In this document: positions 13,286 to 55,704 of the stretch, piece after piece | How positions within the stretch are numbered: the first letter of the stretch is position 1 | Layout: each line of letters starts with the position of its first letter | Assembly: GCA_039195745.1 (NCBI GenBank) | Contig: JBCCVD010000012.1 | Location: 39,100 to 103,099 of the forward strand | DNA from: Pseudomonadota bacterium | GTDB taxonomy: Bacteria; Pseudomonadota; Alphaproteobacteria; Rhodobacterales; Rhodobacteraceae | Direction of reading: 5' to 3' | Length of the DNA stretch: 64,000 nucleotides | The notes under the pieces: generated by a model | Databases searched by the model: none | What the model was told of the DNA's origin: nothing | The model's input: the letters and a program-made list of their open reading frames with translations, nothing else | Translations under genes and position numbers: made by a program

Positions 13286-14281
13286 CTAGCCGCCAAACCT
13301 GTCTTGCCATGTGGGCAATATGTCCTCTCGTGCCTGCGTCGCTTCGTAGACGGCGCGCGCGATGGCGCGGGCGAGGCAGACGGACGCGGCATGGCCGATA
13401 GTGAGCGGATCCATCACGGCATCTTGCAACTCCCGGGCTTGCGTTGAGACACCAAAGATCAGGTCGCCATCCATCGGTGTATGGCTGGGCCAAAGCGCGC
13501 GGGCCATGCCGTCTTGCGCTGCCGTTGCCATCCGTGTGCAGCCCGCTTTGTCGAGCGCCGCATCTGTGGCCACGATGGCAATTGTCGTGGCTTCGCCGGG
13601 GGTGAGCTTGATGCGTGGCGTCAGGGCGGCATTGTGGGTAATCTTGGGGCCGAGCCCGCCGAATTCTGCGTCAAGCTCGCAGGGCGCTGCATGGAAATGC
13701 GGGCTGTCTTCCACGGTCGCTGATCCCAGCGCATTGACCACCACCAAAGCGCCCACCGTGTAGCCCGAAGGCAAAACCAGTGAGGCAGAGCCGAGCCCGC
13801 CTTTCAGATTGACCGTTGTCGCGCCCGTGCCCGCGCCTTGGCTGCCGATTTCAAAATCAGGCACAGCAGCGTCTGCGGCCTTTGCGCCAAGTGCGGGGTA
13901 GGGATTGGCGTCCCAGGCCGTGTCGCCGCCGCTGGCCAGATCGAAGATGATGGCCGCTGGCACAATCGGAACAACATGCGGACCGACAGCAAAACCGATC
14001 CCCGTCTTGCGCAATGTCGCCGCCACCCCGTCGGCTGCTGCCAGCCCGAAAGCGGAGCCGCCAGACAGCACCAGTGCGTTGACCTGTTGCACGGTCTTGT
14101 CAGGCGCCAGCAAATCCGTTTCCCGCGTGCCGGGCGCACCACCCATCACGTTGATGCCAGCCGTAAACGGCGCGGCCCCGCGCAACACTGTGACACCGGA
14201 TTTCAGCGCACCGTCCTGCGCATTGCCGACCGTCAAGCCGGGCACATCGGTGATCAGATTGCGCGGCCCCGGACGCATCAT
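13286..14281 (-). CDS. P1-family peptidase (DmpA/ArgJ-like, S58)
   Basis: NLITDVPGLTVG, GGAPGTRET, LSGGSAFGL, TTIAIVATDA, DGDLIF motifs. Confidence 0.9.
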   Translation of the reverse strand: MMRPGPRNLITDVPGLTVGNAQDGALKSGVTVLRGAAPFTAGINVMGGAPGTRETDLLAPDKTVQQVNALVLSGGSAFGLAAADGVAATLRKTGIGFAVGPHVVPIVPAAIIFDLASGGDTAWDANPYPALGAKAADAAVPDFEIGSQGAGTGATTVNLKGGLGSASLVLPSGYTVGALVVVNALGSATVEDSPHFHAAPCELDAEFGGLGPKITHNAALTPRIKLTPGEATTIAIVATDAALDKAGCTRMATAAQDGMARALWPSHTPMDGDLIFGVSTQARELQDAVMDPLTIGHAASVCLARAIARAVYEATQAREDILPTWQDRFGG

Positions 14282-14628
14282 ATCCGCGGCTTTCCTGCAG
14301 CCGTTGCCGGATCCCCTGTGTTGGGCGTGCCTGCGGGCTCGATCAGCAGAACTTTCGCCTCGCGGCTGGCCCTTGGCCGATGCCGCACGCCCGCAGGTAC
14401 CACGCAGAGTTCTCCGGGTCCCAAAACATGGCTCTCCCCTTCGATGTCCAGCGTGACCTCCCCATCGAGCACCAGGAAGAAATCATCCGTGTCGGGATGG
14501 TCGTGAAAGGGAAATGTACCCTGAAATTTGACCACCATCACGTCGTTGCCATTGTAGTCGGCCACGACATGCGGGTCCCAATGGGAACTGAATTGCGCCA
14601 GCTTCTCGGCCAAATTCACAGGTTTCAT
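14278..14628 (-). CDS. Cupin-domain protein
   Basis: HDHPDTDDFF...VPAGVRHRP cupin motifs; ATG at 14628. Confidence 0.88.
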   Translation of the reverse strand: MKPVNLAEKLAQFSSHWDPHVVADYNGNDVMVVKFQGTFPFHDHPDTDDFFLVLDGEVTLDIEGESHVLGPGELCVVPAGVRHRPRASREAKVLLIEPAGTPNTGDPATAAGKPRI

Positions 14629-14734
14629 CGACAGCACTCCTTCCCGGCGCATCTTGCCAGATCGCGGCTGACCCGCAAGGGTCTGCGCGCTGTCATGGTT
14701 TCGTCATTTTGCTATGGTTTGCAGGCCATTCACA

Positions 14735-14787
14735 TGGCAAACTCTCGTAAATTGCCACATCATGCCCATGTTATAGGGCATAACATG
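14735..14787. promoter_or_regulatory. Two inverted repeats upstream of the coiled-coil/AAA operon
   Basis: TGGCAA-N11-TTGCCA (14735-14757) and perfect CATGTTAT-N5-ATAACATG (14767-14787), ending 20 nt before ATG 14808. Confidence 0.5.
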
Positions 14788-14807
14788 AACAAGAGGGATG
14801 GATTTAC

Positions 14808-15884
14808 ATGGCTGTTTTTGATGCACAGGTTCGGGAATCGCAGGCACAGGTCGAGGAAGCGCAGGCGAAGATTTCAGAGCTGACCAGCCGCATTGAAACG
14901 GCCCGTGCCAAGCTGAAAACCGGCGATGATATCTCCATCGACATCGAAAATGCCTCCCTTGAAGATGTGCATGCGCATACTGAGCTGATGAATGCCAATA
15001 TCGCTGAGTTGATCATGGGGCTCGATGATGTGACCTCCGGCTTTTCCGAAGATTTTAATGCGATGCGCGACAAGACCGGCTGGGAAAGCTTTGTGGGCAT
15101 TTTCTCCAAGGGCAAATCCGAATCCTTACGTCAGGAACGTATGCGCACGGCGTCTATCGACGATAAGCTGCAGGATTTGATCTCCAAATCCGACCAGATC
15201 GTGGCGCTGTTGCAAGGCCAGTTATCCGTGCTCAACGAACAGAAAACAAAGGTTGAAGGCAACCTGACAGAGACCTTGGACGAGCGCGAGATGACGGTCG
15301 GCGAGCTTGAAACCCTGCGCGCAGAGATCCTTGGCATGGACCCGAAGATGATCGAGCTGGAGAATAAAATTTCCGTCGAACAGGACGCCGCCGCACGTAC
15401 GAAGCTTGAGACCGAGCTGGCTGATCTCAACACGAAGTACAACGCGATGGTGCAGGACGAGCAGGTTAAGCTCGCCAAGTCCCAAACGCTGGAGCGCTAT
15501 ATCGAGAAAGGCAAAACCTGGATCGACTCCCTGCAGAACCAAGCCGCGACGCAGATGGTGCTGATCAACAAGCTGGAGACGGACACCAAGCAACGCGTCG
15601 TGCTCTATGATGCCCTGACCAAATCCTTGAAGACCGCCCAGCAGCAGGACGTGGCCCACCAGATCAACGAGATCGGCGTCAAGACGGATCAGGAAGCCCA
15701 AGCCGCCATGGCCGGGATCGGTTCAGCGACGAATGCCCGCATGGCCGAGATGATGGAAGCCCATGAAGACCAAATGGTCTTCGCCCGCAAGGTGTTGGAG
15801 CAGAAGGCCAAAGCCGACGAACGCTTCGCCCGCCGCTTCGAGAAGATTGTAGAGAAGCACGACAAGAACCTCTACGGGGCGTAA
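14808..15884 (+). CDS. Core gene A: 358-aa all-helical coiled-coil protein (TelA-like size and pattern, inferred)
   Basis: Heptad-rich, no TM; host-like codon usage; GAGGGA RBS; amphipathic WESFVGIFSK segment. Confidence 0.8.
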   Translation: MAVFDAQVRESQAQVEEAQAKISELTSRIETARAKLKTGDDISIDIENASLEDVHAHTELMNANIAELIMGLDDVTSGFSEDFNAMRDKTGWESFVGIFSKGKSESLRQERMRTASIDDKLQDLISKSDQIVALLQGQLSVLNEQKTKVEGNLTETLDEREMTVGELETLRAEILGMDPKMIELENKISVEQDAAARTKLETELADLNTKYNAMVQDEQVKLAKSQTLERYIEKGKTWIDSLQNQAATQMVLINKLETDTKQRVVLYDALTKSLKTAQQQDVAHQINEIGVKTDQEAQAAMAGIGSATNARMAEMMEAHEDQMVFARKVLEQKAKADERFARRFEKIVEKHDKNLYGA

Positions 15885-16145
15885 GTGCTTTCGAGGGAAG
15901 CGAAACAATGTCTGACCATCGGTTGTGTCCTTATTGCGATAAGCTTGCTTCCCGGTCTGATCCTTTATCTGTCGTTAACCCATGACATTTGGTTTCCGCC
16001 AGTCGTCGAACGAATTGCCGGTGCGGTGTTTTACTTCGCTTCATTTGTGTTAGGGCTCTTGGGCATCGTTTTTCTAGCAGTCGGAGTCGTGGCGCTTTGT
16101 GTTGCAAAGTTGAAAAAGAAAGAACCCGAGATTGCGGATTATTGA
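15885..16145 (+). CDS. Small 2-TM hypothetical protein (insert)
   Basis: GTG directly after the gene A stop; two hydrophobic stretches, basic tail; AT-richer than core. Confidence 0.6.
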   Translation: MLSREAKQCLTIGCVLIAISLLPGLILYLSLTHDIWFPPVVERIAGAVFYFASFVLGLLGIVFLAVGVVALCVAKLKKKEPEIADY

Positions 16146-16153
16146 AGTTCCAA

Positions 16154-16262
16154 AGCCCGACACTAGCACGCAAGCGCTGAGAGCAGCCCTCGACCGCAGG
16201 CGTCGGGCTGAAAGCCCCCGCCCATGGGGGCGGTCGGGGGCTACCCGGTGTTTCACACCGGG
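16154..16262. repeat. Composite REP-like palindrome cluster
   Basis: AGCCCGAC/GTCGGGCT (16154-16161/16202-16209), GGGCT-GAA-AGCCC, AGCCCCC/GGGGGCT (16213-16242), CCCGGTGT/ACACCGGG (16244-16262). Confidence 0.65.
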
Positions 16263-16277
16263 CGGGAGCGGATTGTC

Positions 16278-16496
16278 ATGAGCGGCACCACAAAACAAGT
16301 GAACCCATTTAGACTCTTCGTTTGCGTAGTCGTCGGAGCAATTAACATTCGACTGGGTTTCGAGCTCTACGATGGCGGATTTTGGTCCTTGCTATTGGGG
16401 GCAGTATTTACCACAGGCGGTGCCGCGTTGATTGCATCCGCGATTTTCATCGCGTTTCGGCGCTCCGTTCGATTGGATATGACGAAAAATGACTGA
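16278..16496 (+). CDS. Small 2-TM hypothetical protein (insert), 72 aa
   Basis: ATG 16278 after GGGAG; two hydrophobic segments; stop overlaps the duplicated gene B start. Confidence 0.55.
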   Translation: MSGTTKQVNPFRLFVCVVVGAINIRLGFELYDGGFWSLLLGAVFTTGGAALIASAIFIAFRRSVRLDMTKND

Positions 16497-16532
16497 AGAC
16501 CTCAACCTCACCGTCGATCACGCGGGCATCAC
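16489..16532 (+). repeat. 44-nt direct repeat, truncated copy of the 5' end of core gene B
   Basis: 42/44 identical to 16958-17001 (ATGACTGAAGACCTCAACCTCACC[G/A]TCGATCA[C/T]GCGGGCATCAC); reads MTEDLNLTVDHAGIT then diverges to a stop at 16588-16590. Confidence 0.92.
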
Positions 16533-16589
16533 TTTTGTAGTAGGGTCAGGATTTGAAGCCTGGCGCAATTGCCCTCTAAGGAGAAGTTA

Positions 16590-16961
16590 GTGCTGCGTTT
16601 TATAAGTGGGCTTGTATGTGCGCTTTTGGGGTGGATCGCAGTGTCTGCAATCTATTGTTTGACCATGCTTGTGGTCGCTCTGCCGTGGTTCGCATCTGCA
16701 ATTCTCGCGATGATACTGACCGACAATGACACCATCCGACTGTTCATTATGGCGCCCGCAACGCTATTTCTTTTCATCTTTTTCTTCTGGTTCGCGTCAC
16801 GCTTCGTGTTGGCGGGGTTCTTCGGAATATGGGGCATGGCGGGATTGGTGTTCCACAAGAGCGCTGACGTGACGCCCTCCCGCATCGCCAATTTTCTAGT
16901 CGAACGCGCACAGCTGATGCGAAGCGATTTAGTGTGGTACTTTTCGAAGGTTAAATCATGA
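16590..16961 (+). CDS. 3-TM hypothetical protein (insert), about 123 aa
   Basis: GTG 16590 with AAGGAG at 16578-16583 (track start 16569); strongly hydrophobic; ATGA overlap with gene B. Confidence 0.65.
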   Translation: MLRFISGLVCALLGWIAVSAIYCLTMLVVALPWFASAILAMILTDNDTIRLFIMAPATLFLFIFFFWFASRFVLAGFFGIWGMAGLVFHKSADVTPSRIANFLVERAQLMRSDLVWYFSKVKS

Positions 16962-18088
16962 CTGAAGACCTCAACCTCACCATCGATCATGCGGGCATCA
17001 CGGATGACCTCGCGGCCCGCCGTTACTTCGCGAAGTTCGAGCGGATCACAGGGCATCTCGCCCGGGTGGCGGCTGAGATGGAGATTGAGCGCACGTTCAG
17101 CAAGCGCGATGTGGATATCATCGCGGGCTATGTGGCACGGATCGCTTATACCTTCCGCGCGCTCAGCCATAAATATCTGCTGACGGGCCGTGACACGGGG
17201 CAGTTTTTCGGCTCGCTCACCATCGACAAGAAGGAAAGTGGTTTTCCCGTTTTCTCGGAACTCATGACCATGGCCAATGATGCGCAACAGGCCGAAAAGC
17301 ATCTGGGCGGCATGCGCAGCAAGGAAGATATCAAGGACGAGATGATCCGCCAGATTGTCGGCGATCTGACAATCCCGACCAAGCTGCAATTCGCACTGTC
17401 ACAACGGATGTATTACGAGCAATTGCAGCTTGGCGATTTGTTCTGGGCCACCAATGATGCGCAAGCGCTTTGGACTGGTAACCTTGATAATCGCCGCACC
17501 TATCTGCTGCATTGGGCTGTTTACGATTCGCGCCAGAATGTGCCGACCATCTATCTGATGGATATCGAGGATTCCGGCGACATCGCTCTGCCCAAAGACG
17601 CCCGACGCTGGCCCTCTGTGCAGGCGCATCTGACCGCACAAGGCTCGAACGGGCTGAAGCTGTTGACCATCGCGCAGGGTTTTGATCGCGACTTTGACGA
17701 TCTGCACCCCAAACGCCTGCGCCGTATCCATGTGGGCCCGATGTACAGCCACGCCTTCACACATCAGTCCGGTCCGATCCGCGACGTGCTGGCCGAGGCG
17801 CAAGGTGCGCAGGGCGAAGACTGGACGCTGGCTTGGACGGTCGAGACGCTGGAATCCGAGCGCGTCGAGATGGAGAAGAAAGGCTGGTTCGGCTCGGTCG
17901 AGCGCGAGATCTTCGCGCTCGATCCCTTTGCCGGGCGCGGCGCTGAGACAGGTGCGACCTCAACCGAGCGCTCCATCATCATGCCCACGCGCCCCTATCA
18001 GGTTCTGGCCGAGAAAAACCCGGCAGGTTTCGCCAATATCCGCAAATTCGTCGTCAGCCCGGCCGGCCGTGTCGTGAGCTACAGGTAG
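16958..18088 (+). CDS. Core gene B: 376-aa soluble protein of unknown function
   Basis: Long ORF with host-like GC3; no motif recognised. Confidence 0.8.
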   Translation: MTEDLNLTIDHAGITDDLAARRYFAKFERITGHLARVAAEMEIERTFSKRDVDIIAGYVARIAYTFRALSHKYLLTGRDTGQFFGSLTIDKKESGFPVFSELMTMANDAQQAEKHLGGMRSKEDIKDEMIRQIVGDLTIPTKLQFALSQRMYYEQLQLGDLFWATNDAQALWTGNLDNRRTYLLHWAVYDSRQNVPTIYLMDIEDSGDIALPKDARRWPSVQAHLTAQGSNGLKLLTIAQGFDRDFDDLHPKRLRRIHVGPMYSHAFTHQSGPIRDVLAEAQGAQGEDWTLAWTVETLESERVEMEKKGWFGSVEREIFALDPFAGRGAETGATSTERSIIMPTRPYQVLAEKNPAGFANIRKFVVSPAGRVVSYR

Positions 18089-18107
18089 GGTGGGCAATCT
18101 GCCCACC
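18085..18107 (+). repeat. GTAG-type REP element
   Basis: GTAG followed by GGTGGGCA-ATC-TGCCCACC (perfect 8-bp stem); its TAG is the stop of gene B. Confidence 0.7.
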
Positions 18108-18124
18108 GTTCAAAGGAAAAACAC

Positions 18125-20059
18125 ATGACCCAATCCGCCGATTTCATGGAATTGAAAGAAGACGACATCCGCGGCCATTACGCTGCCGCCACAGCCATGC
18201 TGGAAGGCGTCGATCACACGCCGCGTATTGCCAAGGCGAAGGAGGCGCCCGCGCAGGAGCGCTCCAGCGGGATCGGAACACGGCGCAGGTTTCGCTCTAC
18301 CACGCCGGGGCTGGTGACGCGCTCAACCGCGCGGCCCGAAGGCGTCAAGCTGATCGACCGGATCGAGGGGATTGGCGAGGACACGCTGCCCTCCGCTTTG
18401 CAAGCCACGACCCTGCAAGCCTTGCGCCGCGCGCTGGCCATCGCGCTGGAAACCGGCGCGCAATTTGCCGAGGCCACGGGATTGGCCGAACTGAAGCGAG
18501 AGAATCTCGAAGGTCGCCTCTCGGACGCCAAGAAGGCCGAATTCACCGATCTGCTCGCCGCCGAAGCGCTGGCCAGCCTGCACACATTCGCCAACGCCAC
18601 CTCCCTGTTGCTCAGCACCCAAGCCACAGAAACCACGGTGGAAATCGGTGCGGTCGAGGAAGTCCTGACTGACAATGCCCAACTCGCCCTGCACGGCGCT
18701 TTGTGGGAGCTTGATCAAGACCTGGCCCTTTTCGCAGATGACGATGCCAAGATGATCGCGACTGTTCTGTCCTTCACTGAACAGCTGATGGAGAAAGCCG
18801 CTTTGCGCGCTGCCAACACGCCCAGGCTAGAGCCGTTCAACACCGCCTCCTACCGCGTGGAGGCCGACGACCTGACGATCAACGGCTTCACCCCGGCGCG
18901 CGCCGCCAAGGGTTCCAAGCTGACCATGACCTTCAAGAAACCCAACGAGGTCGTCGGCAACCACATCGCCAAGTATCAAGCCATGAAGCTCGCCAAGATG
19001 CTGATGGCCTATGATTTCGACCGCAAGCTCAACCCCTTTGCCGAACTCGGTGGCTTCATCTTCACCTTCATGGGCGACGGTGCGCCGGGAACAGGGAAAA
19101 CCACGCTGATCCAAATGATGGCAGGCCTGATCTCCGGCTATTGCGAGACGGCTGGCTATGCTTTCCGCTACCAGAACCTGTCCACCGACAATATTGACAG
19201 CTATCAGGGCAAGTCCGGCCAGAACGCCAAGGCCTTCATCAACAATGTCATCGACCCGAACGTCATCGGGTTTGGGACGATTGACGATATCGACCAGCTT
19301 GCGGGCAAGCGCGGCGACCGGCAATCCTCGGCGGGTCAGTTGGAGATCACCGCTGTACTCATGGAAAGCTTCGCCGGTGCCAACACCGTTGTGCGCGGCA
19401 ATTGCACGTTCGGCATGTTCTCCAACTACCCCGAAAATGTCGATGACGCGCTGCGCCAACGGGCAGGCGCCCGCTTCCTGGTCGACGGGCCGCAAACCCG
19501 CGACGACTATGTCGATATTCTCAACCTGCTGATGGGCAAGAACCACGACATCCCCTTGGGCGATTTCGAGCCGTTTGCCGCGCAAGAGATCAAGAAAGCC
19601 GTCGCCGCCAGCTTTGAAAGCCATGGTAAACCGCATGAGGAAGGCCTGCTGAAAGTCTACGAAAAAGTCTCAAACGAGATCGGCGAGCTGAACACGATCA
19701 ACAAGCTCGGCACCTATCTCAAAGGCATCCAGGAGGCCGACCATCGCTTCACCGGCCGCGCCATCAAGAACATCACCGACGCCGTCAAAGTCCGCGCCAT
19801 GGATTTCGAGCTGCCCGATGAATGGATGGAAGAGCCCGACCTGTTTCTGTTCAAATCCTATGACGAGAAAAAGGGTATGATCGAGGAGCTGCGCCAGCCC
19901 ATCACGGTCGAGATGGTGATCCAGGAAATCAACCGCTACGCCGATTCAGAATTCCGCTACGCCGACAAAAGCGACGAAGTCGCGATTGCGAATATGGTGC
20001 GCGAATACGGGCTGACAGAGCAGGCGAAAAAGCGGTATCTGGAGAGTAAGGGTTCGTGA
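18125..20059 (+). CDS. Core gene C: AAA+ ATPase with a long unknown N-terminal domain
   Basis: Walker A GAPGTGKT, Walker B-like FGTIDDID, sensor-1/SRH FSNYPENVDDALRQRA. Confidence 0.9.
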   Translation: MTQSADFMELKEDDIRGHYAAATAMLEGVDHTPRIAKAKEAPAQERSSGIGTRRRFRSTTPGLVTRSTARPEGVKLIDRIEGIGEDTLPSALQATTLQALRRALAIALETGAQFAEATGLAELKRENLEGRLSDAKKAEFTDLLAAEALASLHTFANATSLLLSTQATETTVEIGAVEEVLTDNAQLALHGALWELDQDLALFADDDAKMIATVLSFTEQLMEKAALRAANTPRLEPFNTASYRVEADDLTINGFTPARAAKGSKLTMTFKKPNEVVGNHIAKYQAMKLAKMLMAYDFDRKLNPFAELGGFIFTFMGDGAPGTGKTTLIQMMAGLISGYCETAGYAFRYQNLSTDNIDSYQGKSGQNAKAFINNVIDPNVIGFGTIDDIDQLAGKRGDRQSSAGQLEITAVLMESFAGANTVVRGNCTFGMFSNYPENVDDALRQRAGARFLVDGPQTRDDYVDILNLLMGKNHDIPLGDFEPFAAQEIKKAVAASFESHGKPHEEGLLKVYEKVSNEIGELNTINKLGTYLKGIQEADHRFTGRAIKNITDAVKVRAMDFELPDEWMEEPDLFLFKSYDEKKGMIEELRQPITVEMVIQEINRYADSEFRYADKSDEVAIANMVREYGLTEQAKKRYLESKGS

Positions 20060-20340
20060 ACAGGTTCAACTTCGCGACGAGTTTCTATCCTCAAGCAGAT
20101 GAAAAACCCTTCCATTTTGCGGAGCGGTATCAGGGCGGCATAACTTACGATCCAATTCCCAAATGCGACGTCAATGTTGCCTGTATGTTTCCCGAAATGG
20201 CGTTTGCACCGCCCATGTTTCATCTCTTTATCAGCGCAGCGACCGTGCTCACTGTGTTGGGCTTGAGCGTCGTGCTATGGCTGCTAGCGCATGGCTTGCT
20301 CGGCGCAAAGCGGCTGCACATGAAGGTCGTGAGACAGTGA
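20056..20340 (+). CDS. Possible small protein with C-terminal TM (insert or relic)
   Basis: GTGA overlap with the ATPase stop; hydrophobic MFHLFISAATVLTVLGLSVVLWLLAHGLLG; N-terminal half looks atypical. Confidence 0.35.
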   Translation: MNRFNFATSFYPQADEKPFHFAERYQGGITYDPIPKCDVNVACMFPEMAFAPPMFHLFISAATVLTVLGLSVVLWLLAHGLLGAKRLHMKVVRQ

Positions 20341-20605
20341 CCTTCGATACCAAACATCTTTCCAACCCTGTGCGCTTCGCATCGGAAGACAGCGTCAGAC
20401 CGGGGGGCGGCGATCTGAGGGTGCTTCGATCACACAAATCGCCAGTCCTCTCGGGCGGTCTGCAATGCCCACGGTCTGAAAATCGGGCATGTACTGCTGG
20501 TTGATAGCTGACCAACCTGCCTTTGGCTCAACTGTCTTGAATGACCGCTATCATATAGCTCCACATTTTTTATACTGGATTGGGATGGGAAGTGGAGGAG
20601 CTCGT

Positions 20606-21424
20606 ATGACCAGTTGGCATCTAGACGAAACCCATCTGACATCGGCTGGATCGGTCGCTGCCGGTCGCACAGGTGCCGGACCAGACCTCGTGCTGGCGCA
20701 TGGCTGGCCTTGGTCGTCGTATTCCTGGCATCGCGTTATTCCTGAGTTGGCGAAGTCCTTTACCGTTTACTGGTACGACATGCCTGGCTACGGCAAATCG
20801 AGTAAATCAAAAAACCAACGGACGTCGCTGGATGTCCAAGGTAAGGTTTTCGCGGAGCTTCTAGCGCTTTGGGGTTTGTCGAAACCAAGAGTGGTCGCGC
20901 ATGATTTCGGCGGTGCAACGACGCTCAGGGCGCATCTTTTGCATGGATGCGAGTTCGAGCAACTGCTGCTAATGAACGTAGTGGCAATGCGTCCCTAGGG
21001 ATCGGATTTCTTTGATCATGTCGGGCGACATGTCGATGCCTTTCAGGGCTTGCCACCCCATATCCACAAGGCGGTGGTTGCGGCCTATATCCAAGGTGCA
21101 TTGGTCAATGACATTCCTGTTGAGGATTTTGATGCCTTGGTCGCTCCATGGCTCAATGAGGATGGCGCGACGAGCTTCTATCGCCAATTTGCTCAAGCAG
21201 ACGAAAGATATACAGAAGAGGTCGAGGCTCAGTTTGGCGATGTTCGCTGTCCGGTGAAAATCGTTTGGGGTGAAGATGATCCATGGATACCGCTCGACAG
21301 AGGCAAAGCATTGCATCAGCTCATGCCCAAAGCTCAGTTCGTCACCATCCCCGGTGCGGGCCACATGCCCCAACTCGAAACTTCGGAAACAGTCCTGAAG
21401 GAAGTGTTGAAGTTTTTTAAGTAA
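20606..21424 (+). pseudogene. Alpha/beta hydrolase (Asp-nucleophile, epoxide hydrolase/dehalogenase-like) interrupted by one in-frame TAG
   Basis: ATG 20606 after GGAGG; AHGWP, AHDFGG, WGEDD, GAGH motifs; TAG at 20996-20998 in MRP*GSDFF, same frame open to 21424. Confidence 0.85.
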
Positions 21425-21589: not shown

Positions 21590-22219
21590 ATGAGAGCATC
21601 GAAACACGTCTGGCGCATCGCTTTGATGGCGCTGGTAGGGCTTTTGGGCGGGGCTTTTGCAGCAGCCTTAACTCTGCAAAGCTCCGACCTTTTCAGCTTG
21701 ATACCGCCGCCGACGGAGCTCAATCCGAACCCAGCCGCTGACGTCACGCCTGACCGCATCCTCAGCCTTTATCAATCCGCCTTCACCGCTTGGGCCGCGC
21801 TTGTTCTGTTGGTTCCGGCCTATATCTTCGTGTGGTTGCGCACGCATGATGCCGCGTGGTTGGCGTTTTGGACGACGAGCTACATCGCCTATGTGATCCA
21901 CCTCTATGTCTCTGCCTTCTGGTTCTTCGAAGGGGATTTCGAGGCCATGACCACCTCCTCCCGCGTGTCAGCTTTCTTGCCGGGCATGGCCGTCCTGATT
22001 TGGTGGGGCGTCGATGTGGTGATTGGATTTGCCAAGATACATGCCACATGGGTCACCGTGCAGCGTGTCATTGTGCATCTGCTGGTCTTTGTCCTCTTCG
22101 TCGGCGGATCAGCGGTGAAGGGAGAGACAGGATTGATTCAGCTTATGGGCTGGGCGCTGTTTGGTGCCGGTGTGGGGGCGACGGGTGTCGCTTCCCTCAA
22201 CCTTCGCAGGGCCGCATGA
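21590..22219 (+). CDS. Multi-TM hypothetical membrane protein (insert), 209 aa
   Basis: About six hydrophobic segments; ends in an ATGA overlap. Confidence 0.75.
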   Translation: MRASKHVWRIALMALVGLLGGAFAAALTLQSSDLFSLIPPPTELNPNPAADVTPDRILSLYQSAFTAWAALVLLVPAYIFVWLRTHDAAWLAFWTTSYIAYVIHLYVSAFWFFEGDFEAMTTSSRVSAFLPGMAVLIWWGVDVVIGFAKIHATWVTVQRVIVHLLVFVLFVGGSAVKGETGLIQLMGWALFGAGVGATGVASLNLRRAA

Positions 22220-22599
22220 TGGCCGCTCTTTTCCTTGCATCCGGCTGGTGCCTTGCAGCATAAGGCGCGCTTTTGGGGCGTTGGCGCGTGGGACGACTGG
22301 CGTTTAGGCGCGAAGAGCAGTCTCCAATCTACTTTCAAATGTCGCTCTTGATCACCTGTGTCGTCTGTTTCGGCATTGAATTGCGACGATACAGCCCGAA
22401 CGCGTTGTCAGTACGAACAGCGGTAGTGGTCGAGATGCTGATCGGTGTGGGTCTTGCGCTATTTTTGGTACATCAGAAACTTGCGAATAACGACAAGTCT
22501 TTCGCGGGCGTTGCCAAGGCTATCTTGTATCGCGGTCTGGGCGCTGAGCAGAGGCTGCGCGAATTCCTGTCTTGCCTGCTTCACACGGGTCGCGCATAA
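22216..22599 (+). pseudogene. Decayed ORF whose first 29 codons match the 23562 gene
   Basis: From 22219 MAALFLASGWCLAA*GALLGRWRVGRLAF versus MAALFLIVWIIPAAWGAFSGYWRAARPAL: 15/29 ungapped, TAA at the Trp position; frame continues open to 22599. Confidence 0.6.
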
Positions 22600-22999: not shown

Positions 23000-23561
23000 G
23001 CCTTTTTTGCAGCGGCTACTTCAAATAATGCGCTGTTGTTGGCTGTTACTGGGGTCTACAGATTGGCATGAGTGTTAACCTATTGCTGTGCAAGTCGCAG
23101 CTCTGCGCATCCTTGTCTTAATCGCGCGTGCCTTCTGAGGCGCGGTGTTTTTGCAAGACTGCAACACGCTATCACTTCATCCACCCCCGACAGGCGCTTA
23201 GCCGTCTTCCGCATCGGATGCGTCGCTGGACGCGGTCTTTTCATTTCAAACCTTCGGTGCCATCGTTTGGTCAGCGTGCATTTTGCTGATTTGTGCTCAA
23301 AGCACGGTTTGAGTGTCCGTTTTTCGGTCCTGCGAGTTCATCGCCCGTCGGAACAGTTCAGGGGGAGGGCGCGCTCGGCCTGGGAAAAGCACATGCCAAT
23401 GAGATCAGAGGGTTAACATGCACCTGCTCGGTTTGGACCCTTTGCTGGCAGTGGTCGCGAAGCGGAGGGCGGCATTGATGCGGATGGTGGAGTGGGCTTT
23501 ACTATGCGCGGGCATCGCTGCACGTGCTGTGTCTCCTCTCAACCGAAGGAAGCTTGTGTAA

Positions 23562-23885
23562 ATGGCTGCGTTATTTCTCATCGTCTGGATCATTCCCGCC
23601 GCCTGGGGTGCCTTTTCCGGCTACTGGCGCGCGGCGCGGCCGGCGTTGAACCTTGGGGATTTTTCCAAGGATATCGGCATTGCCTTGATGACGGCCGCAG
23701 CGCCGATTTTCATGTTTCACATGGTCTGGGTTGGCGCGTTCATGGAAATGACGGGGGGGCTTTCTGCGCTGGGCTCCTGGGCGTGGTATTGGTCCTGGCT
23801 GACCGCGCTGATCTGGTTCCCGCTGATGGTCATCGCCTATATCTGGCGGGCAATGAAGATCAAGCGGGGGGCGCGGGGTTTGTGA
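23562..23885 (+). CDS. Trp-rich 3-TM hypothetical protein, 107 aa
   Basis: Hydrophobic segments, host-like GC; GTGA overlap with the next ORF. Confidence 0.7.
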   Translation: MAALFLIVWIIPAAWGAFSGYWRAARPALNLGDFSKDIGIALMTAAAPIFMFHMVWVGAFMEMTGGLSALGSWAWYWSWLTALIWFPLMVIAYIWRAMKIKRGARGL

Positions 23886-54774: not shown

Positions 54775-55704
54775 TTAGCCGCGCCCCCGTGGATGGGCAT
54801 CGGCGTAGATCTCCATCAACCGGGCTGTGTCGACAGCCGTATAGGCTTGTGTCGTGCTGAGCGACGCATGACCCAGCAACTCTTGAATAGCGCGCAAATC
54901 GCCTCCCGCTTCGAGCAGATGGGTCGCGAAGGAGTGGCGCATCGCATGAGGCGTGGCAGTGGCAGGCAGACCAAGCTGGTGTCGTGCATTTTCCATCACT
55001 TTTGCAATCATGCGGCTGTTCAGTGGCCCGCCGCGCGCGCCCCGAAAGAGCAGATCGTCAGGCTCAAGCTCAAAAGGCAGGGCGCGTGCATATCGCGCAA
55101 CGGCGTTTCGCGCAGCCTCAAGAACCGGTATGATCCGTTCTTTGCCGCCTTTCCCCGTGATCCGCAGAACGTCGGGCAGGGGGGCGTCTTTTGCCTTCAG
55201 GCCCAATGCTTCAGAGATCCGTAATCCGCAGCCATAAAGCAGCGTGACAACAGCCACGTCGCGCGCTGCAATCCAGCCGGTGCGCGATTGTATCTCCACG
55301 GTTTCCAGCACGGCAATCGCGGCATCTTTCGCCAATGGTCGCGGCAATTTCTTTTGAAATTTAGGGGAGCGCGTGGCCAGGACTGCTGTCGGATCAAACC
55401 CGTCACGTTCAGAAAACCAGCGGTAGAAAGATTTCACGGCGGACAATTCCCGCGCCAAAGACCGGGCAGAGATACGACGCCCGCGCTCATGCGCCATCCA
55501 CGCCCGCATATCCATCGGCTTGAGCCGCTTTAACGGGCCAAGCCCCGTCGCCTCCCCAAAATGCTGTGTCATGAAGGCCAGAAAGCCGAACACATCATGG
55601 CGATAGGCCTCAATCGTGTTCTCAGCCACCCCGCCCAGTGCAGAGAGATGTTTTAACCAAAGTTCTGTGAGGTCCCGGGCAGCAGGTGAGATCAGCCCAA
55701 CCAT
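54775..55704 (-). CDS. xerC: Tyrosine recombinase XerC
   Basis: LLYGCGLRISE, GKGGKERIIP, TPHAMRHSFATHLL, LGHASLSTTQAY; follows DUF484. Confidence 0.9.
   Translation of the reverse strand: MVGLISPAARDLTELWLKHLSALGGVAENTIEAYRHDVFGFLAFMTQHFGEATGLGPLKRLKPMDMRAWMAHERGRRISARSLARELSAVKSFYRWFSERDGFDPTAVLATRSPKFQKKLPRPLAKDAAIAVLETVEIQSRTGWIAARDVAVVTLLYGCGLRISEALGLKAKDAPLPDVLRITGKGGKERIIPVLEAARNAVARYARALPFELEPDDLLFRGARGGPLNSRMIAKVMENARHQLGLPATATPHAMRHSFATHLLEAGGDLRAIQELLGHASLSTTQAYTAVDTARLMEIYADAHPRGRG

Follow-up and report, generated by a model that had tools for sequence, protein, structure and literature searches.

The window analysed here, a stretch of 64,000 nucleotides (nt) from a marine Litoreibacter bacterium, contains a duplicated gene start in the gap between two conserved genes, and it is this duplication and its probable origin that are described below. 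The genes and elements of the locus are all on the forward strand. The left border of the gap is formed by cc358 (14808-15884), a conserved coiled-coil gene encoding 358 amino acids (aa) that belongs to no Pfam, NCBIfam or PADLOC family, and the right border by a conserved gene of 376 aa, also without family, which is referred to here as B (16958-18088). The gap itself begins with mem86 (15885-16145), a small membrane-protein gene whose 86-aa product has three hydrophobic segments and whose GTG abuts the TAA of cc358 (TAAGTG). A non-coding spacer of 132 nt follows, inside which lies a GC-rich hairpin element (16176-16248) resembling repetitive extragenic palindromic (REP) sequences, and then come two further small membrane-protein genes, up72 (16278-16496; 72 aa, two hydrophobic segments), which would be the resident one, and ins123 (16590-16961; 123 aa), which would be the inserted one.

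The preliminary description of this DNA reported that the 5' end of B is present on both sides of the insert, and this was confirmed. The direct repeat consists of an upstream copy at 16489-16532 and a downstream copy at 16958-17001, with a start-to-start spacing of 469 nt and 42/44 identity; the two differ at repeat positions 25 (G/A) and 33 (C/T), and the longest exact run common to both is 24 nt. Both copies open with ATG and translate to MTEDLNLT(V/I)DHAGIT. These two sites are the only matches to the 44-mer in the 4.3-Mb genome (E = 3e-14 for the second copy), and a whole-genome search found the 425-nt insert and the 57-nt leader at its left end to be single-copy. The downstream copy is the working start of B and the upstream one appears as a relic of the resident start, corresponding to codons 1-14 plus two bases. 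From its ATG, a predicted open reading frame (ORF) of 33 codons (16489-16590, the relic ORF) runs through the 14 codons of B, a joint codon and 18 codons of the leader (16533-16589), which begins at the joint 16532/16533.

All of the stop/start overlaps that had been described are present and link up72, the relic ORF, ins123 and B in a chain. The TGA of up72 (16494-16496) falls within ATGACTGA of the upstream copy, that is, within the first 8 nt of the relic start; the last base of the relic-ORF TAG (16588-16590) is also the first G of the ins123 GTG (16590-16592), six bases 5' of which the leader carries an AAGGAG (16578-16583); and the TGA of ins123 overlaps the ATG of B as ATGA (16958-16961). 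The insert had been said to encode three transmembrane segments, and a Kyte-Doolittle scan of ins123 agrees, with three hydrophobic segments and a possible fourth. According to family searches (Pfam, NCBIfam, PADLOC), the 425-nt insert codes for ins123 alone, and this 123-aa membrane protein has no match in any of the three; more generally, no toxin, immunity or defence family matched any of the gap genes within the window.

The leader is open in only one of its three frames, the one continued by the relic. A search for it elsewhere in the genome and in the loci of relatives fetched up to then gave no match, and folding revealed no hairpin in it. Because only the relic-continued frame is open, and because the TAG/GTG overlap resembles the TAAGTG between cc358 and mem86, the leader may derive from the 3' end of whichever gene stood before ins123 in a donor. 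A decayed 3' end of cc358 was also considered as its source, and rejected since the local alignment score equalled that of shuffled sequences (p = 0.7).

Comparison with relatives shows which parts of this arrangement occur elsewhere. The nearest relative examined, as judged by the cc358 and B proteins (97.6% and 90.4% identity, respectively), is genome G044, and in a tree of B the genome of the window groups with G009 and G044 (support 97/95). In G044 the order is cc358, a small diverged ORF at the place of mem86, the REP-like element, an up72 homologue and B. The REP-like element of the window is 93% identical to the same place in G044 over 73 nt, and the G044 homologue of up72 (37-40% identity) overlaps the true B by the same stop/start geometry as up72 does with the relic. 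When the window is aligned to G044, the sole large difference is one gap of about 469 nt (16533-17001). The preliminary description had proposed that a relative devoid of the insert be checked for the number of 44-mers, and G044 has a single copy, identical to the upstream copy at 43/44 positions (including both of those that vary) and to the downstream copy at 41/44. Relative to G044, the two differences between the copies therefore sit in the working copy and not in the relic.

The junction at the other end of the insert is found in a different part of the genus. Homologues of ins123 (50-52% identity) occur in 2 of 30 other genomes, G001 and G015 (Litoreibacter ascidiaceicola and a Litoreibacter metagenome-assembled genome), which the B tree places in another clade with strong support (100/99); none was found in the remaining 28. 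In both, ins123 is the sole gene between cc358 and B, beginning on the cc358 stop and finishing on the B ATG, and no repeat is present. The DNA around the ins123-B junction (WYFSKVKS*, ATGA) is nearly the same in G001, G015 and the window, and reads TGGTACTTTTC.AAGGT.AA.TCATGACTGAAGACCT. Further relatives of ins123 were found neither in metagenome contigs of the JGI nor, outside Litoreibacter, in species genomes, and a search of 5.8 billion proteins returned only the protein itself. By these comparisons, both junctions flanking the joint are natural ones, up72-B as in G044 and ins123-B as in G001 and G015, with only 16532/16533 being new, and the downstream copy would have arrived with ins123. 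That the repeat opens at the ATG of B has a plain reason: it is there that alleles of the gap become homologous.

These alleles are many. In every Rhodobacteraceae locus examined cc358 adjoins B, at a distance that varies from -10 to about 1650 nt over about 110 genomes: 54 to 1076 nt in 19 loci of the genus (659 nt in G044), -10 to 931 nt in 28 other genera and -3 to 1014 nt in 60 more, with the largest value (1647 nt) in G171, a member of another genus. The gap holds between none and three ORFs, mostly unrelated between species, each with one to three hydrophobic segments and usually beginning at or near the cc358 stop and finishing on the B ATG; that of the window is the fullest seen in its genus. 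Gene content is patchy on the B tree, and for two further types a minimum of two changes each is required across the starred branches. The small membrane-protein genes between cc358 and B can thus be read, from their positions and distribution, as alleles of one slot. In another Litoreibacter genome, G024, the slot (L007, about 929-1504) also includes a ParE-type toxin gene (Pfam PF05016, 27.1 bits vs a cut-off of 23) with a weak ribbon-helix-helix (RHH) partner, and the toxin stop overlaps the ATG of B.

A second structure of the same kind was detected in G171 (G171:C4:514000-522000, minus strand, about 4329-4640 of L058). There, cc358 is followed by about 1 kb of other sequence, a B stub, 8 nt, a 3' stub of cc358, a gene for a 119-aa membrane protein and finally an intact B. 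The B stub measures about 150 nt, has its own ATG and is 85% identical to B over 127 nt, and the cc358 stub corresponds to the last 153 nt of that gene (84% identity). Here a second slot allele is joined together with both its flanks, and G171 thereby carries a scar that is built in the same way but arose independently. Self-searches of 108 further loci revealed no other scar, a single 20-nt match being probably due to chance. With two scars in about 110 loci, slot alleles seem as a rule to be exchanged cleanly, by double homologous recombination, and scars to be left only rarely, which agrees with what illegitimate joints would lead one to expect.

The repeat, the empty site of G044, the two natural junctions, the lack of a recombinase gene and of hairpin sites at the insert, and the patchy alleles can all be read directly in the genomes compared, and we consider it probable that they reflect a single recombination event which left its scar at a hotspot of gene exchange. 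The earlier proposal of an insertion that brought a replacement 5' end of B is supported in this respect, since G044 shows the gap of about 469 nt and since the ins123-B junction is natural in G001 and G015. From these observations we infer an order of events, a route and a donor as follows. The ancestor would have had cc358, mem86, the REP-like element, up72 and B, as G044 has now, and the incoming fragment, from a fairly close relative, would have been another allele composed of the 57-nt leader, ins123 and the start of B. On its right side the fragment would have paired with the resident B through homology, and on its left side its end would have been joined without homology after base 44 of the resident B. 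Of the resident start, the first 44 bases would then persist as a stub (16489-16532), and behind it would come the newcomer with an intact B start of its own. The most simple route to such a product would be homology-facilitated illegitimate recombination (HFIR) giving an insertion with long target duplication; the product would be no different had a circularised fragment integrated through one crossover. The genome encodes ComEC, DprA and a 1344-aa open frame with a Phage-tail_3 domain, a domain that is also found in large tail proteins of gene-transfer agents, and these would make uptake of linear DNA plausible, nothing more.

Several points weigh against this reconstruction. No donor-type allele, with some other gene followed by the leader, ins123 and B, was found against which to look at 16532/16533 for the few bases of microhomology that are usual at the non-homologous end of illegitimate joints. 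No mosaic breakpoint was seen in B either, whether by sliding identity to G044 or by a scan of B for its best relative, the nearest relatives, at only about 80-84% identity in DNA, being too distant to map one. Moreover, identity to the G044 counterparts is only about 37-40% for mem86 and up72, compared with 90-98% for the flanks, so that the architecture common to the window and G044 may not be one of simple vertical descent. Finally, the relic is stop-free and still 43/44 identical to G044, and this preservation could indicate either a recent event or selection, for instance as a re-initiation site.

The same final structure would also result from an event of opposite polarity, in which the resident locus had some gene, the leader, ins123 and B, and a block made of mem86, the REP-like element, up72 and the beginning of B entered from a G044-like donor, anchored on its left through homology in cc358 and with the illegitimate joint on its right. 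The 43/44 identity of the relic to G044 would fit such an origin, as would the identity profile of cc358, of which, in 60-nt windows, the last third is about 90-93% identical to G044 and the first two thirds about 73-88%. However, all relatives share a conserved cc358 3' end, so that this gradient need not reflect transfer, and the low identity of mem86 and up72 to the G044 proteins indicates that G044 is not near such a donor. In addition, parsimony on the B tree places the architecture with a small membrane-protein gene, the REP-like element and up72 in the clade of the window, G009 and G044; elsewhere than in the window, ins123 occurs only in a distant clade. We therefore regard the opposite polarity as unlikely.

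Under the favoured reading, in which ins123 is the newcomer, the overlap chain calls for comment because the preliminary description considered that an unbroken ribosome relay had been kept through the insertion. The overlap geometry stands, and the chain may pass ribosomes along from up72 to B; it does not extend to cc358, the relay from which is broken by the 132-nt spacer with the REP-like element. Selection is not required to explain it. The TAG/GTG overlap probably came with the donor DNA, and if the leader is the 3' end of a donor gene, the right-hand half of the relay would have been inherited and only the in-frame joint would be new. As one of the three leader frames is open, such a joint had about a 1-in-3 chance of arising. 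Given the donor's own overlap and this chance, the chain seems likelier to be a by-product than to have been selected. The two copies offer at most 24 nt of perfect identity, through which excision by recombination is possible in principle.

A broader proposal would see in the cc358-B junction a recombinase-free cassette-capture site, where the start of B anchors fragments delivered by gene-transfer agents, where the small membrane-protein genes serve as specificity or immunity modules of an AAA+ envelope system, and where in-frame relics are kept in order to hand on ribosomes. We hold this to be quite improbable.

The preliminary description further compared the replacement of the target 5' end to what integrative elements do. 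In that case, the leader, ins123 and a 44-mer would form a site-specific cassette with the first 44 nt of B as attachment site, able to leave as a circle of 469 nt. Direct repeats do bracket the insert exactly, B stays intact and an empty-site relative exists in G044, yet the other properties of such elements are lacking. There is no recombinase gene in or near the insert, the nearest of seven tyrosine recombinase genes being about 38 kb away (nearest Phage_integrase match at about 54826-55278 of the window). At the joints neither a hairpin nor an inverted repeat was reported, and folding z-scores of -0.8, -0.2 and -0.7 are no better than those of shuffled sequence. The boundaries are not recurrent either: ins123 stands without a repeat in G001 and G015, the stubs of G171 are about 150 and 153 nt long and not 44, and such variable stub lengths point to illegitimate joints and not to an attachment site. 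The lack of any other scar in the 108 further loci and of a second copy of the insert in the genome likewise argues against a mobile cassette, which we consider very unlikely.

No better supported is an intragenomic tandem duplication extending up to nt 44 of B, after which one of the two cassette copies would have been replaced by ins123 or have diverged into it. Tandem duplications are common, and the structure in G171, where a B stub adjoins a cc358 stub, resembles a duplication joint. Nevertheless, no similarity is left between 16064-16488 and 16533-16957, and ins123 has true homologues at the slot in other species, which means that it is not a diverged up72. Two events would be required, and the differences between the 44-nt copies lie in the working copy relative to G044 instead of in the unconstrained relic. 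For these reasons a tandem duplication too is held to be most improbable.

Misassembly was the remaining concern. A Logan contig of run SRR22824306 (2766 nt), reached through exact look-up of the B and ins123 proteins and whose independence of the reads of this assembly is not established, covers 16213-18978 at 99.93% identity, and both repeat copies and the joint are identical in it to the window. Its only two mismatches, at 17002 and 17014, are synonymous (B codons 15 and 19) and lie directly 3' of the downstream copy; they could represent strain variation or the trace of a recombination tract. Logan assembles from 31-mers, and since the longest run shared by the copies is 24 nt there was no repeat for a graph assembler to mis-thread. 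That the structure is an artefact joining the alleles of two strains, as a draft of 66 contigs might allow, is thus extremely unlikely, given that the Logan contig has the same order over both copies and the joint and that a mixture of two strains would offer no shared word linking nt 44 of B to the leader.

Some features of the surroundings deserve mention. The REP-like element has a second copy at G000:C5:9158-9220, and a folding energy of -67.2 kcal/mol (z = -2.95) was computed for the 135 nt that include and surround it; an Rfam search of 14000-21000, which includes the element, gave no match. The same element is probable in the slot of G007, from a resembling translated stretch noticed by eye. 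Exact-protein look-ups indicate that cc358 and mem86 are on record nowhere else. On the 3' side of B there is a gene for an AAA ATPase (18125-20059; 644 aa, Pfam AAA PF00004, E = 2.4e-11), and two genes further along the operon belong to the Pfam families DUF6638 and DUF1523; a literature search on these two families yielded no paper about the cc358-B-AAA ATPase system. Beyond the ATPase gene, in a second variable stretch, lies what is probably an alpha/beta-hydrolase pseudogene: its N-terminal part (20489-20998) and its C-terminal part (21050-21424) are separate ORFs that differ in frame. Three gene starts encoding MAALF (22190-22300, 23070-23180 and 23540-23650) were inspected as a candidate second scar and rejected, as local alignments detected no similarity at the DNA level.

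Gene B itself is widespread: in a first search of 24 other genomes of the genus it was present in 21, it was found in 132 of 300 genera sampled across the family, its own included, and its family comprises at least 463 clusters at 50% identity in a representative library. Its AlphaFold model is of high confidence (mean pLDDT 93.5, pTM 0.92), and neither a PDB fold match at E <= 0.001 (Foldseek) nor a profile match to PDB sequences was obtained; the modelled structure may represent a novel fold.

The scar gives a date and an orientation to one gene-gain event in a slot whose content turns over in many Rhodobacteraceae. It also indicates that small membrane-protein genes can be added there without the machinery of mobile elements and without breaking the downstream B, and it should help to interpret similar patterns of duplicated gene starts elsewhere. 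In itself it reveals no new mechanism and is real but ordinary. The role of the system made up of cc358, B and the AAA ATPase, and the reason for its variable small membrane partners, constitute the more promising subject.

The locus can be compared with several known systems. With integron cassettes and islands at gene ends it has in common a gene-sized cargo at a fixed place, a target that remains intact and direct repeats bracketing the cargo; unlike these, the window displays no integrase, no attC-like hairpin and no recurrent boundary.

HFIR is a second point of comparison. Its definition, as cited in PMC5361080, comes from experiments with species capable of natural transformation (de Vries and Wackernagel 2002; Prudhomme et al. 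2002; Meier and Wackernagel 2003), and PMC3240628 deals with it in E. coli. The likeness would be that the newcomer has one homologous end, in B, and one non-homologous joint (16532/16533), which has no homology to any known flank. The natural ins123-B junction of G001 and G015 shows that the newcomer carried B sequence. The difference is that the event in the window is known from its product alone, as seen in the sequence.

HFIR has also been proposed for the stacking of orphan immunity genes in type VI secretion system (T6SS) clusters of Vibrio cholerae, and for displacement in Rhs and contact-dependent inhibition (CDI) loci (Kirchberger et al. 2017, PMC5361080). As in those arrays, variable modules lie here beside a conserved gene, a newcomer enters beside a retained old module, stubs of the conserved gene are kept (B in the window, B and cc358 in G171) and the alleles are patchy among relatives. 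The slot genes of the window differ in having no recognisable toxin or immunity function, and stacking takes place at the 5' end of the downstream gene B, whereas it is at the 3' end of the effector gene in the arrays. Scars were also seen here in no more than two of about 110 loci.

The counterpart in structure is the insertion with long target duplication (Nobusato et al. 2000), which, as cited in Furuta et al. 2010 (PMC2853133), is marked by repeats of more than 30 bp that are single-copy in a relative without the insert and by the absence of mobility genes. Inserts of Haemophilus influenzae that have no mobility genes are flanked by 46-bp repeats at 44/46 identity (PMC2853133), a scale near that of the 44-nt repeat of the window with its 42/44 identity; here too the empty site, in G044, has a single 44-mer, no mobility gene is present and the repeat is unique in the genome. 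The known cases carry restriction-modification genes of several kb (PMC2853133), whereas the cargo of the window is one gene for a 123-aa membrane protein. A further difference is that the first base of the window's repeat is exactly that of a start codon, which follows from the insert being an allele of the slot whose native right neighbour is B. In its structure the locus is an insertion with long target duplication, carrying a cargo of another class.

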